A DNA stretch of 64,000 bases from Acidobacteriota bacterium (GTDB lineage Bacteria > Acidobacteriota > JAAYUB01), in NCBI GenBank assembly GCA_029565065.1, contig JAKQOW010000018.1, positions 4,043 through 68,042 of the forward strand, in the 5' to 3' direction. Below, piece after piece: positions 51,136-56,020 of this stretch. A program made the translations under genes and the position numbers. The notes beneath the pieces were generated by a model. It did not search any database and was not told the DNA's origin. It was given only the letters and a program-made list of their open reading frames with translations. How positions within the stretch are numbered: position 1 is the first letter of the stretch; every line of letters begins with the position of its first letter.

Positions 51136-53460
51136 ATGGCGTTTCTGGAACTGCGCCTGGCCGGCGGCCAGGCCCACAAACTCACGCTCCGGGAGGGGGA
51201 CAACATTCTGGGTTCCGGCGACCAGGCCGGCATCCGGATCCAGGACCCGATGCTGGCCCCGCTTCAGGCGCTGATTCGCGTCGCCTCCGGCGCATGCACA
51301 ATCCGCAACCTGACGCCGGACAAGCCATTCTACCTGAACGCGACGCCCGTCCACGCGGATCGGCCGCTTCGTCCCGGCGACCAGCTGATACTGGGCAGCA
51401 CCCGGTGCATCTTCCACGATGTGGATCTGGAAGCCACGCGGGAAATGCTGGAGATCTCGCTCTGCCAGAAGCACGCCGAGGGCACGATCGGTCCGACTCC
51501 GGAGCCGGCGCCCGCGTCCGCCCCACCGCCGACGCCATCGGTGGAATCCCAACCCCCGATCACCGACAAAGACCTTCAGACCTTCCATCACCTGATCGTC
51601 GCCGATACGGCGGACGGACAACCACCGGTACTGCTTAAGGAGAAGGAAGTCACCCTCGGCAGCGCGCCCGACGCCGGCGTCCGGCTGCGCGGGACCGGCA
51701 TCGCCCCCCGCCACGCCAAGATCATTCAACGGGAAAGCCACGTGGTCATCGTGGATCTCGAGAGTCCGGCCGGCGTGTTTCTCAATGACCGGCGGATCGT
51801 CCGCGAAACGCTGAAGGCGGGCGATGTCATCCGGCTGGGCGACATCCAGCTCATCTATCGCCTCCCGCTGGTGCCGCCGCCTCCGGCGGAAGCCGCCGCC
51901 CGTCCGGCGGCGCCAGCCACCCCGACGAAGGCGCCACCGATCCGCAGCAGCCGGGCGCTCACCTGGGTGGCCGCCGGTGTGATCGGTCTGGTCGTCGTGG
52001 GGGTAGCCGTCGTCGGCGGCATCTGGGGCGTCAAGCGCCTGCGCTCAGCCGGTCGGGAGGCGGATTCCCGGCGTCAGGCGCAGGAGCTGGTGCGGCAGCG
52101 TCAGTGGCAACCGCTGACCGATCTGCTGCTGGGCGACAAGGATTTCCCGCTGCCGCTGGCCGAGAAACAGGTGCTGCTAGAGAACGCCCAGATGGAGATC
52201 GAAGCCTCCCAACAGGCGGAAACGCTCCGCCAGGCGCTCGCCGGCGGAGACATGGAAAGCGCTCTGGCGTATTATTTCAAGATTCCCGCCGCCAGCGTGT
52301 ACCGCCCGGAGGCTCGAACGGTGGTGCTCCAGCACCTTGACGCCGACATCGACCGGACCCTGTCGAAACCCGCTCTCGAGTTCAGCGATTACACCGAGAT
52401 CATCACCCTGTCGGAGAAGATGCTACAGCTGGACCCGCGATCCGCATCCGCCCTCGCCTACATCTGCCTGGCGCGGCTCGGCCAGGGCGAGCTCCCGTCG
52501 GCCGCCGCCGCCGCCGAACGTTTCATCGCCGCCCATCCCGAGCAGGGTGAGGGATACCTGTTTCAGGCGCTGGCGCTTTATCGCGGCGGCGCGTACACGG
52601 GCGCCATGGACAGTGTGTCCGAAGCGCTGCGACGACAACCCGACAATATCGAGATGCTGCTGCTGCGCGCCAAGCTGTCCATCTTGCTGCAGCGCCTCAC
52701 CGACGCCCGACTGGATCTGGCCAGGGTGCTCGAGTTGGACCCTGACAACACCGCAGCCAGAACGCTCTACGCCCGGTTGTCCGGCCAGGCACCACCTATC
52801 GCCCCCGGCGGTGCGGAAGCCCGCCAATATGAGGACCTCCTGCGCCGGCGCCGTGCAGCCGCTTCCGTGGAGCGGGAAGACACCGCCATCCGCCAGCTGT
52901 TCCTGCAGGGCGACGCGGAAACCGCCAAGCGGAAACTGCAGGAAAAAATCCGCCGGACGCCGCAGGCGCCCGACGCCGCCCGCTGGACCGCGATGCTGGA
53001 CGCCATCACCCGCATCGAAACCCTCTACCGCGAAGGCGACGCGTTGCGCGTCAGCAATCTGCCCGCCGCGATCAGCCGCTGGGAGGAGATGCGCCGCGTG
53101 GAGGCCGCCGCGTTCCCCGGTCAGCGGAGCCGTTTCCTGAACGACGCGGCGACCGCGGCGGCGGACTTCTTCGCCGGCCGGGCGCTGGCCGACCTGCAGG
53201 GGAACCAGCCGGACCGGGCGTACGATCTCGCCAGCCGGGCCTTGGCCTGGCAGCCGGCGCACGCCCAGGCGCAGGGCATTCTCCGCCAGATCGATGACAC
53301 CGCCCAGCAGCTCTACCAGGAAGGTTTTCGACACTATCAGCAGGGCGATCGTGCCGGCGCGCGCCAGTACTGGGAGAAAGTGGGCCGGACGGTGACGCCG
53401 GCCAGCCCCTGGTACGCGCGCGCCCAGGAGAAACTGAGCGGACTCCAGGAGGTGCCATGA
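51136..53460 (+). CDS. double-FHA, single-pass membrane protein with about 450-aa TPR-like C-terminal region (774 aa)
   Basis: FHA1 (res 1-100), Pro-rich linker, FHA2 (VTLGSAPDAGVRLRGTGIAPRHAKII...GVFLNDRRIV...GDVIRLG). TM ALTWVAAGVIGLVVVGVAVVGGIWGV, then TPR-like helical repeats. Confidence 0.7.
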   Translation: MAFLELRLAGGQAHKLTLREGDNILGSGDQAGIRIQDPMLAPLQALIRVASGACTIRNLTPDKPFYLNATPVHADRPLRPGDQLILGSTRCIFHDVDLEATREMLEISLCQKHAEGTIGPTPEPAPASAPPPTPSVESQPPITDKDLQTFHHLIVADTADGQPPVLLKEKEVTLGSAPDAGVRLRGTGIAPRHAKIIQRESHVVIVDLESPAGVFLNDRRIVRETLKAGDVIRLGDIQLIYRLPLVPPPPAEAAARPAAPATPTKAPPIRSSRALTWVAAGVIGLVVVGVAVVGGIWGVKRLRSAGREADSRRQAQELVRQRQWQPLTDLLLGDKDFPLPLAEKQVLLENAQMEIEASQQAETLRQALAGGDMESALAYYFKIPAASVYRPEARTVVLQHLDADIDRTLSKPALEFSDYTEIITLSEKMLQLDPRSASALAYICLARLGQGELPSAAAAAERFIAAHPEQGEGYLFQALALYRGGAYTGAMDSVSEALRRQPDNIEMLLLRAKLSILLQRLTDARLDLARVLELDPDNTAARTLYARLSGQAPPIAPGGAEARQYEDLLRRRRAAASVEREDTAIRQLFLQGDAETAKRKLQEKIRRTPQAPDAARWTAMLDAITRIETLYREGDALRVSNLPAAISRWEEMRRVEAAAFPGQRSRFLNDAATAAADFFAGRALADLQGNQPDRAYDLASRALAWQPAHAQAQGILRQIDDTAQQLYQEGFRHYQQGDRAGARQYWEKVGRTVTPASPWYARAQEKLSGLQEVP

Positions 53461-54898: not shown

Positions 54899-56020
54899 AT
54901 GATTCACCTGGTAGTGGGCGCCAAGGGCATCGAAGAGGAGCGGGAGCTGTCCTTCGACCAGAATATCGTCAAGATCGGGCGGCTGAAAGAGAACGACCTG
55001 CCCCTTCCGGCAGCCAACGTGTCGCGCGTCCACTGCATCATCACGTTCGAAAACGGCGAGTACTACATTTCAGACTCCAGCTCCAACGGCACCTTGCTCA
55101 ACGGTGAAATCGTGGGGCGCAACCGCCGGCTGCCTCTGCGTCACGGCGACCGCATCGAAATCGGGGATTTTCTGATCCGTTTCGTGATCCAGGATGCCCA
55201 CGAAGAGTTCGAGAAGACCACCGATTTTCTCCAGGCCAAGTTTGCGGAGCTGCTGGTCCAACCCAAAGCCGAGACCCGCATCCCTTACCTGCTCATCGTG
55301 GGCGGTCCCACCAACGGCACCCGCGTGGAGCTTCTGGACGAGACGGGCGAAACTCTCATGGGGCGCACCCCGGACTGCCCGGTCCAGATTCCCTCACCGA
55401 CCGTCTCCAAGCATCACGCCCGGATCATCCGGCGCGGGGCGATCATCGAAGTCGAGGACTTGGGCAGCTCCAACGGCACCTGCGTGAACGGCCAGCCGGT
55501 CCAGGGTATCCAGCCGATCCAGGACCGCGACGAGATCATCCTGGGACAGCAGGGCATCGCCGATCCCATCAAGATCGTGCTGTCGATCCCCGTCCCGCTG
55601 ACCGAACAGGAGCCCGGAATCCCGCCGGCGGCGCCGCCCGTTGCGCCGCCGAAGGCCGAGACCGGTGCGGAAGCGCCATCCACGGTGATGGATCCCAAGA
55701 TGGCCGCACCGGCTGCCGCCCCGCCGTCTCCGGAGACCGCCAAGTCTGACGCCCCCGCCGCCGCCCCGCCGACGGCACCCGAGCCGCCACCCGTCCCGCC
55801 ACCCGCGCCGGAGCCCCCGCCGCCCGCGCCGCCGCCACCCACCGTCAAAGGCGCCGGGCCCGAACCCAAGGCGGCCGCCGAATCCAAGTCGTCCGCCCCC
55901 AAGGCCCCTCCGCCTGAAGAGGTTAAGACCGGCATGGGCGCGCTGGAATGGATCATCATCGGCGTCGGCGTGCTGGCCGTGATCGCCGTCGTCGCGGTTC
56001 TGGTGATCTATCTGGTGTGA
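54899..56020 (+). CDS. double-FHA protein with long Pro/Ala-rich linker and C-terminal tail-anchor TM (373 aa)
   Basis: FHA1 (GR..S.RVHCIITFENGEYYISDSSSNGTLLNGE) and FHA2 (GRTPDCPVQIPSPTVSKHHARII...DLGSSNGTCVNGQ); PAAPPVAPP...PPPAPEPPPPAPPPP linker; C-terminal TM WIIIGVGVLAVIAVVAVLVIYLV. Confidence 0.7.
   Translation: MIHLVVGAKGIEEERELSFDQNIVKIGRLKENDLPLPAANVSRVHCIITFENGEYYISDSSSNGTLLNGEIVGRNRRLPLRHGDRIEIGDFLIRFVIQDAHEEFEKTTDFLQAKFAELLVQPKAETRIPYLLIVGGPTNGTRVELLDETGETLMGRTPDCPVQIPSPTVSKHHARIIRRGAIIEVEDLGSSNGTCVNGQPVQGIQPIQDRDEIILGQQGIADPIKIVLSIPVPLTEQEPGIPPAAPPVAPPKAETGAEAPSTVMDPKMAAPAAAPPSPETAKSDAPAAAPPTAPEPPPVPPPAPEPPPPAPPPPTVKGAGPEPKAAAESKSSAPKAPPPEEVKTGMGALEWIIIGVGVLAVIAVVAVLVIYLV

Follow-up and report, generated by a model that had tools for sequence, protein, structure and literature searches.

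What do membrane proteins with FHA domains and relatives of the flagellar components FliG and FliH do together in one operon? The question is raised by a stretch of DNA from an Acidobacteriota bacterium (GTDB lineage JAAYUB01; GenBank assembly GCA_029565065.1, contig JAKQOW010000018.1, positions 4,043 to 68,042 of the forward strand), analysed here over its full 64,000 nucleotides and called the window below. An original prediction, made from the letters of the DNA and their translations, had singled out positions 51136–56020 as encoding two SctD-like membrane proteins, each with two FHA domains, and a secreted tetratricopeptide repeat (TPR) protein, and had proposed that these form a reversible phosphorylation switch with a nearby PP2C phosphatase. 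The three open reading frames of this region, all on the + strand, are labeled A (51136–53460), B (53457–54884) and C (54899–56020). They are the last three genes of a nine-gene unit (47112–56020), a point that the prediction had missed, which encodes in order a PP2C phosphatase, a small conserved protein (hyp113), a small TPR protein (TPR134), a sigma-28-like factor, a FliG-like protein, a FliH/SctL-like protein, A, B and C. The reading that I favour, tentatively and at somewhat less than an even chance, is that this operon encodes a phospho-gated, membrane-anchored, envelope-spanning assembly of flagellar or type III secretion system (T3SS) ancestry, and not an injectisome ring.

The gene arrangement is that of a tightly packed operon. 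A gap of 120 nucleotides precedes the PP2C gene, and the downstream genes are at most 31 nucleotides apart or overlap; the stop codon of A and the start codon of B share the sequence ATGA, with GGAGG upstream of the B start. All nine genes are kept in identical order in the loci of the FliG-like protein's relatives (FliG-like identity 48–98%), which comprise four GTDB species representatives, all of them Acidobacteriota metagenome-assembled genomes (MAGs; L012–L015, FliG-like identity 48–97%), and the metagenome contigs L018–L020 and L023. Another metagenome contig, L024, is short and holds only the last six operon genes, and the TPR, sigma, FliG-like and FliH-like genes are kept in the most divergent fragment (L032). 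In most loci the block is preceded by panB-panC-DUF2520, but in L031 the nine genes lie intact between flanks that are both entirely different, which indicates that the block moves as a unit. The ratio of nonsynonymous to synonymous substitution rates (dN/dS) against L013 is 0.07–0.22 across all nine genes (0.087 for the PP2C gene and 0.088 for hyp113), with 0.155 for panC; these are therefore nine working genes under purifying selection, not decaying relics.

The operon is restricted so far to a small clade of uncultured Acidobacteriota, and the FliG-like protein has only 14 relatives among 5.8 billion proteins. NCBI product names are limited to 'FHA domain-containing protein' and 'FliG C-terminal domain-containing protein', and a literature search found no description of the nine-gene operon. 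An anti-phage defence system was considered and rejected, since PADLOC gave no relevant match. A scan for sigma-70 promoters and terminators was uninformative, the sigma-28 promoter consensus TAAA-N14-17-GCCGATAA was sought in the window and not found, and the aligned region upstream of the PP2C gene shows merely a loosely conserved TAGTAT/TATAAT box.

I aligned the four FHA domains of A and C, with their orthologues, to each other and to the phosphothreonine (pThr)-binding FHA structures of FhaA (3po8) and GarA (6i2q). Protein C (373 aa; 54899–56020, + strand) consists of two canonical FHA domains, a 120-aa Pro/Ala-rich linker and a C-terminal tail anchor, and matches the Pfam families FHA (PF00498) with 134 bits in two stretches (cut-off 20.7) and Yop-YscD_cpl (PF16697) with 78 bits. 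The pThr-binding residues are present in both its FHA1 (R28, S42, H45, N63) and its FHA2 (R156, S170, H173, N192), and the motifs GR, SxxH and SxNGT occur in both domains and are invariant in seven orthologues. To judge from its sequence, C is a credible pThr reader.

Protein A also matches the FHA family above the cut-off (67.7 bits, again in two stretches) as well as Yop-YscD_cpl (70.3 bits), but its domains are degenerate. FHA1 (aa 1–95; 51136–51420, + strand) lacks the pThr-binding Arg, Ser and Asn, and carries S27, A41, Q44 and K63 at the Arg/Ser/His/Asn positions (in G-S, A-P-L-Q and P-D-K-P). A profile of this domain finds the FHA domain of FhaA in the PDB at 8e-9, in an alignment that pairs GRG of FhaA with GSG, S-r-r-H with A-P-x-Q and S-t-N-G with P-D-K-P. 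In FHA2 (aa 150–242; 51583–51861, + strand), compared with FhaA and GarA, the Arg, Ser and Asn positions are occupied by S176, A190 and A212, and only His193 is kept. On these alignments the operon holds two kinds of FHA domain, a reader in C and a degenerate scaffold in A. The expectation of two FHA domains in each protein, with proline-rich linkers, was thus correct (18–33% Pro in the linkers of A and C), while the proposed pThr switch survives in part: the Arg/Ser/Asn triad is intact in both FHA domains of C, so that a direct switch is possible for C only, and is lost in both FHA domains of A.

Both proteins also contain conserved threonines outside the FHA folds. In C, Thr107-Thr108 (55217–55222, + strand) lie between the two FHA domains in the motif E-K-T-T-D-[FY]-L-Q, invariant in 7 orthologues although the linker around it is variable, and are a candidate phospho-site. 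In A, residues 101–106 (window 51436–51453) form an invariant T101-R-E-M-L-E motif that follows FHA1 in an otherwise variable linker, and T101 is a candidate phospho-site of the pT-x-x-hydrophobic type. Many FHA domains prefer pT-x-x-hydrophobic sequences, and the motifs around T101 of A and T107/T108 of C fit this pattern.

How the membrane is involved is indicated by the remainder of A and by B. Protein A (774 aa, with its ATG at 51136; 51136–53460, + strand) is organized as FHA1, linker, FHA2, linker, transmembrane (TM) segment and TPR superhelix. The TM segment (aa 275–299; 51958–52032, + strand) is the only one of its kind in the protein, with a Kyte-Doolittle 19-residue maximum of 2.62. 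An AlphaFold2 model computed from eight orthologues (mean predicted local distance difference test score, pLDDT, of 78.6) shows beta-sandwich domains at residues 1–95 and 150–242, disordered linkers, and helices only at residues 324–771 (52105–53448, + strand; pLDDT ∼90), and TPR families are found by Pfam in the C-terminal half. The TPR domain is placed in the periplasm because FHA domains are cytoplasmic in nature, and because of the signal peptide of B. Foldseek searches of the PDB with the model return generic TPR superhelices (OGT, CTPR, Tom70) and FHA domains. Orthologues of A are 38–94% identical. The C-terminal domain is found in nine orthologue clusters, and otherwise gives only generic TPR matches among 5.8 billion proteins.

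Protein B (475 aa; 53457–54884, + strand) possesses a Sec-type signal peptide (aa 1–28), and matches many TPR families in Pfam throughout its length. Its N-terminal hydrophobic segment spans residues 11–29 and is followed by VMA|AS, where the orthologues have A-x-A-like sites. Five of its cysteines are invariant across seven orthologues, and a CxxC motif is conserved in most; these invariant cysteines may form periplasmic disulfides, or a redox- or metal-sensing site. In C, the hydrophobic segment (aa 350–373) is the end of the protein, with nothing after it. The six operon proteins other than A, B and C are without a strong hydrophobic segment in the hydropathy scan. The topologies first proposed from the sequence (a single TM segment in A, a ∼450-aa TPR domain beyond it, a tail anchor in C and a secreted TPR protein) are therefore all supported.

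Is A then an SctD protein, given the likeness that had been noted? The likeness extends to several features, since SctD proteins (YscD/PrgH/MxiG/PscD) also have an N-terminal, cytoplasmic FHA-fold domain (two in the chlamydial CdsD), one TM segment and a large periplasmic domain, and A is likewise encoded beside an SctL/FliH homologue. SctD FHA domains also lack the pThr-binding Arg and Ser, like those of A and unlike the canonical domains of C; they bind SctK without phosphate (10.1101/2020.09.22.308627). However, the periplasmic part of SctD is made of three alpha/beta ring-building domains, and in its place A has a 450-aa TPR superhelix according to AlphaFold2, Foldseek and Pfam; the SctD periplasmic domain is absent from the top 50 Foldseek matches of the A model. 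At E ≤ 10 the FHA1 profile retrieves none of the SctD chains in the PDB, and the SctD model TIGR02500 scores 24.9 bits against a cut-off of 86 (E 8.6e-6), over FHA1 only (aa 15–98); C has no match to it. SctJ, SctK, SctQ, SctN and SctV are not encoded nearby. I therefore rejected membership of A in the SctD/CdsD family: the suggested resemblance holds for the topology and the degenerate FHA domains, and fails for the periplasmic part, the family score and the gene neighbourhood.

The T3SS flavour of the locus is nevertheless real, and comes from the neighbouring genes. TPR134 (48331–48735, + strand) matches TPR families in Pfam, and is a small cytoplasmic TPR protein that resembles T3SS chaperones; its NCBIfam matches to LcrH/SycD, CdsG and SctY extend over the full length but stay below threshold. 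The sigma factor (238 aa; 48743–49459, + strand) has Sigma70 regions 2 and 4 in Pfam, and is FliA/WhiG-like: TIGR02479 (FliA_WhiG) is the best-scoring sigma subfamily, at 146.7 bits, below its cut-off of 189.6. The FliG-like protein (328 aa, full length; 49472–50458, + strand) matches FliG_C (40.7 bits, cut-off 23.3) and MgtE_N. In Foldseek searches of the PDB with its AlphaFold2 model (predicted TM-score, pTM, of 0.70) the best 13 matches are all FliG, and full-length FliG entries (e.g., 3hjl, 9n49_G) are aligned over ∼350 columns, with TM scores that are low (0.2–0.3) owing to domain flexibility. The model thus predicts a FliG fold with N, M and C domains, and an E-I-H-P-x-W motif of the protein aligns to the EHPQ motif of FliG_M. 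Finally, the FliH/SctL-like protein (217 aa; 50472–51125, + strand) matches Pfam FliH with 88 bits (cut-off 24.1) and T3SS_SCTL with 32.7 (cut-off 23.3), scores ∼100 bits on the NCBIfam FliH and HrpE/YscL models, with all equivalog models below their cut-offs, and finds FliH (5b0o) and V-ATPase subunit E in the PDB.

Outside the clade, the FliG-like protein has its nearest relatives (25–27% identity) on low-GC contigs. In one of these loci (L011) the gene order is sigma, a 163-aa protein, FliG-like, FliH and T3SS ATPase. In a second, on a 58.8-kb contig of an unrelated bacterium (L028; Ga0315276_10000140), the order is TPR149, SctJ/short FliF, two small open reading frames, sigma-28, a 166-aa open reading frame, FliG-like and FliH, and continues with FliI/SctN, YscO/FliJ, a FliK-like gene, FliM, FliN, FliO, FliP and FliR. 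The same-order matches between the operon and L028 are TPR134 to TPR149 (32% identity, E 1.5e-17), sigma (39%), FliG-like (26%) and FliH-like (31%), which shows, on the sequence evidence, that these four proteins share ancestry with a flagellar-type T3SS locus. No FHA protein was found in either of the distant T3SS loci L028 and L011, which leaves no demonstrable descent of the FHA genes from the L028-type locus.

The L028 locus (L028:4778–20132, with fragments in L011, L026, L027 and L029) is a flagellar-type T3SS locus of a low-GC (48%) sediment bacterium. Its SctJ/FliF is short (316 aa), a sigma-28 gene is embedded in it, and its FliG-like protein is divergent and full-length. No rod, hook, FlhA or FlhB genes were seen in 20 kb of L028, and the locus may itself be an unusual T3SS variant.

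What sets the operon apart from an L028-type locus, with which it has in common the ordered TPR, sigma, FliG-like and FliH-like genes and a full-length FliG fold, is the content around them. L028 encodes FliF/SctJ, FliI, FliJ, FliM/N and FliOPQR, and in the operon FHA membrane proteins and TPR proteins are found instead. Protein A directly follows the FliH-like gene in every Acidobacteriota locus; in L011 and L028 that position is taken by the ATPase. Neither the 64-kb window nor the 10 kb flanking the operon on either side in any of the ∼10 relatives was found to contain SctJ, SctV, SctN, SctRST, SctC, SctQ or SctK, and FliF, FliM and FliN, present in the distant L028, are missing in every one of them from both the operon and the flanking DNA. 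No ATPase, export gate, C-ring or MS-ring gene thus lies beside the operon in any relative, its place being taken by A, B and C, and this favours a stand-alone, non-secretory use of the FliG and FliH parts.

Other systems with FHA proteins offer models for how C might work. In the system for type VI secretion (T6SS), the kinase PpkA, the PP2C phosphatase PppA and Fha (Fha1/TagH) form a threonine-phosphorylation pathway (PMC12607579; bioRxiv 10.1101/2023.12.21.572528). The operon likewise has a PP2C and an FHA protein with a long, Pro-rich disordered region, a pair proposed to gate the assembly of a membrane machine, but it has no linked kinase, C is tail-anchored with two FHA domains, and the window is without T6SS genes. 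A TagH identity for C was rejected, since TIGR03354 scores 117.7 bits against 120.25 and from the two FHA domains only. In the Mycobacterium tuberculosis protein Rv1747, tandem FHA domains flank a linker with pThr sites (FHA1, linker pT152/pT210, FHA2; PMC8339232). C likewise has tandem canonical FHA domains, conserved linker threonines and membrane attachment, and by analogy this likeness suggests a phospho-dependent self-association that would be reversed by PP2C. However, Rv1747 is an ABC transporter with an adjacent kinase, PknF, and C, which has just a tail anchor, is without a transporter domain.

How could these parts work together? In the assembly that I favour, A would be the structural anchor, its degenerate cytoplasmic FHA domains docking partners without phosphate in the manner of SctD and SctK, as the loss of the phosphate-binding residues implies; these partners would most obviously be the FliG-like and FliH-like proteins. 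The 450-aa TPR superhelix of A would reach into the periplasm and pair with B, which is exported and translationally coupled to it. C would be the phospho-reader in the same membrane, its two intact FHA domains held on the 120-aa Pro-rich tether. A Hanks kinase encoded elsewhere would write pThr marks, which C would bind and PP2C erase, and with T101-x-x-M/L of A and T107/T108 of C as candidate marks, this could lead to multivalent clustering of the Rv1747 or T6SS-Fha type. The sigma-28-like factor, with hyp113 as a possible partner and TPR134 as a possible chaperone, would link transcription to the assembly's state.

Several points weigh against this proposal. Where there is a FliH-type protein, an ATPase that partners it is normally expected. 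None of the relatives has a kinase linked to the operon, whether within it or in its flanks, and the window itself contains none, as the original prediction had stated (the Pfam calls, which extend over almost the whole window, include no Pkinase family). These genomes may encode a flagellum or T3SS elsewhere, the scope of the comparison being the window and the 10-kb flanks. The charge around the TM segment of A (three K/R before; four K/R and two D/E after) is ambiguous and does not decide its orientation, and every partner assignment is inferred from co-encoding. Moreover, multi-FHA membrane proteins occur in many unrelated contexts, and alone imply no T3SS-like role.

This last point follows from an exhaustive HMMER search with residues 1–235 of C, which found 43,464 proteins at E ≤ 1e-3. 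Among the best 150 cluster representatives are 30 tandem-FHA tail-anchored proteins of 320–380 aa, and 20 multi-FHA proteins with one TM segment and a large C-terminal domain (TIG, TPR, M48 peptidase). The architectures of A and C are thus widespread, modular and largely uncharacterised, and it is the operon context that is unusual. One triple-FHA tail-anchored protein (P0198, L030:10001–11086, Ga0498931_0000462) is 31% identical to C, and is encoded last in a multihaem cytochrome-like cluster, which hints that tail-anchored FHA readers attach to quite different membrane systems.

The main rival, somewhat unlikely in my estimate, is that the operon serves, as an accessory or regulatory module, a complete flagellum or T3SS whose genes lie elsewhere in the genome. 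The basal body would then be surrounded by A as a ring or scaffold of SctD-like or collar-like form, the machine would have its own or second copies of FliG and FliH in the operon's FliG-like and FliH-like proteins, and C and PP2C would gate assembly, as has been proposed for PknD and CdsD in Chlamydia. In favour of such a module, four genes are collinear with a flagellar-type T3SS locus, the FliG-like protein keeps the EHP motif used for FliM binding, and the degenerate FHA domains and single TM segment of A mimic SctD; FliH-like proteins normally bind the FliI/SctN ATPase, and a machine elsewhere is compatible with evidence drawn from the window and flanks. There is also a precedent in CdsD, whose two FHA domains are accompanied by phosphorylation by PknD (PMC2765968). 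Nonetheless, the window is free of core T3SS and flagellar genes, as are the 10 kb on either side of the operon in ∼10 relatives, including L031 with its different flanks; the periplasmic domain is a TPR domain and not one of the ring-building motifs; and the FliG-like proteins form a very small, divergent family, with ∼26% identity to the nearest FliG-like proteins that are linked to a T3SS.

The operon could instead be devoted purely to signalling from the envelope to transcription, with the activity of the sigma-28-like factor as its sole output, an explanation that I regard as unlikely. The periplasmic TPR domains of A and B would sense an envelope cue, C and PP2C would relay it through pThr, and the FliG-like, FliH-like, hyp113 and TPR134 proteins would sequester the sigma factor or act in partner switching, with no structural role. 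PP2C phosphatases are classic parts of sigma-factor partner-switching systems, T3SS TPR chaperones double as transcription co-regulators in injectisomes, and the sigma gene sits in mid-operon directly behind genes for a small protein without family assignment and a chaperone-like TPR protein. However, Pfam and NCBIfam detect no anti-sigma, STAS or RsbW-type domain, the window lacks the sigma-28 consensus, the sigma factor may simply be inherited as it is also embedded in the L028 T3SS locus, and a full-length, three-domain FliG fold suggests a structural role. A regulator of cell-wall growth or division is very unlikely. In mycobacteria, FHA proteins, one of them membrane-anchored, are encoded in an operon with a PP2C (FhaA/FhaB(FipA)-PstP-PknA/B), and a system of this type would tune peptidoglycan synthesis with the membrane FHA proteins and PP2C, the FliG, FliH and sigma genes being unrelated neighbours. 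FhaA (Rv0020c) is indeed the closest solved relative of the FHA domains of A, C scores 97 bits on the FhaB/FipA model, and mreBCD-pbp2-rodA lies ∼10 kb upstream in the window. But that score is below the cut-off of 125, and memberships in FhaB/FipA, GltG and OdhI were all rejected as sub-threshold matches to FHA regions only. The operon contains no kinase, RodA or penicillin-binding protein, has two FHA domains per protein, and includes FliG, FliH and sigma-28 genes; L009, L015 and L031 have not retained the linkage to mre, and nine genes that stay and move together argue that FliG, FliH and sigma are not casual neighbours.

A bolder version of the envelope-spanning assembly that I favour can also be considered, although it is rather improbable: FliG and FliH homologues taken off the T3SS ATPase and export gate, and re-mounted on FHA anchors with periplasmic TPR arms, as a pThr-switched, stand-alone machine with a captive sigma-28 factor as its readout. 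If true, this would add to the envelope-spanning machines a new, flagellum-derived class. FliG and FliH are known almost only as flagellar parts (FliH also as SctL in injectisomes), and here their homologues are under purifying selection without an ATPase, export gate or C-ring, coupled to FHA anchors and a PP2C. Provided that the genomes lack a T3SS, rotor and stator parts would here have been exapted for another purpose, a rare event, and the operon would offer a tractable case of a bacterial membrane assembly under Ser/Thr phospho-control. Should a flagellum or T3SS be encoded elsewhere, the operon would represent a new FHA- and TPR-based accessory layer, of the kind that cryo-electron tomography repeatedly sees around basal bodies before the genes are known. 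The presence of a reader and a degenerate scaffold FHA protein in one operon leads to a clear experimental design. Unexplained extra roles have been described for parts of the flagellar T3SS (PMC9380563).

Two operon genes remain to be described. The first, whose position at the head of the operon is as originally stated, encodes the PP2C Ser/Thr phosphatase (278 aa; 47112–47948, + strand), with Pfam matches to PP2C_2 (53.4 bits, cut-off 24) and PP2C (40.4 bits), and 215.9 bits on the NCBIfam Stp1/IreP model, just under its cut-off of 230. The motifs NEDA, DGMGG, TDG and DNVT, which include the metal-binding Asp motifs, are visible in its sequence. The second, hyp113 (113 aa; 47980–48321, + strand), has no Pfam or NCBIfam match even at E ≤ 5, but has orthologues in all orthologous loci (55–96% identity), and a weak profile match (E 1e-3, in a small database) to the ∼96-aa open reading frame that heads the L028 T3SS locus.

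Both borders of the operon have neighbours of some interest. Downstream, a gene on the - strand (56027–57529) encodes a protein of 500 aa whose only match, to HHH_5, is weak; the gene is convergent to gene C and 6 nucleotides from its stop codon. It is present in the close relatives L012, L013 and L018–L020, and is placed outside the operon because it is missing from L014, L015, L023 and L031. Immediately upstream of the block, a Rossmann-like/DUF2520 gene (46155–46991) follows panB-panC and overlaps the panC stop codon, which is consistent with a PanG-type ketopantoate reductase that completes a pantothenate operon.

Elsewhere in the window, positions 38001–40000 have a GC content of 54.7%, compared with ∼64% elsewhere. 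This stretch, which may be a recent acquisition, includes genes for a GGDEF protein (38078–39481) and a FecR-domain membrane protein (39485–40825), immediately upstream of mreB-mreC-mreD-pbp2-rodA. Finally, three genes in a row on the - strand (4206–7946), beside groES-groEL, encode a BshC-like protein, a PIG-L deacetylase (BshB-like) and a GT4 glycosyltransferase (BshA-like), which gives this Acidobacteriota MAG the look of having a thiol pathway of the bacillithiol type.

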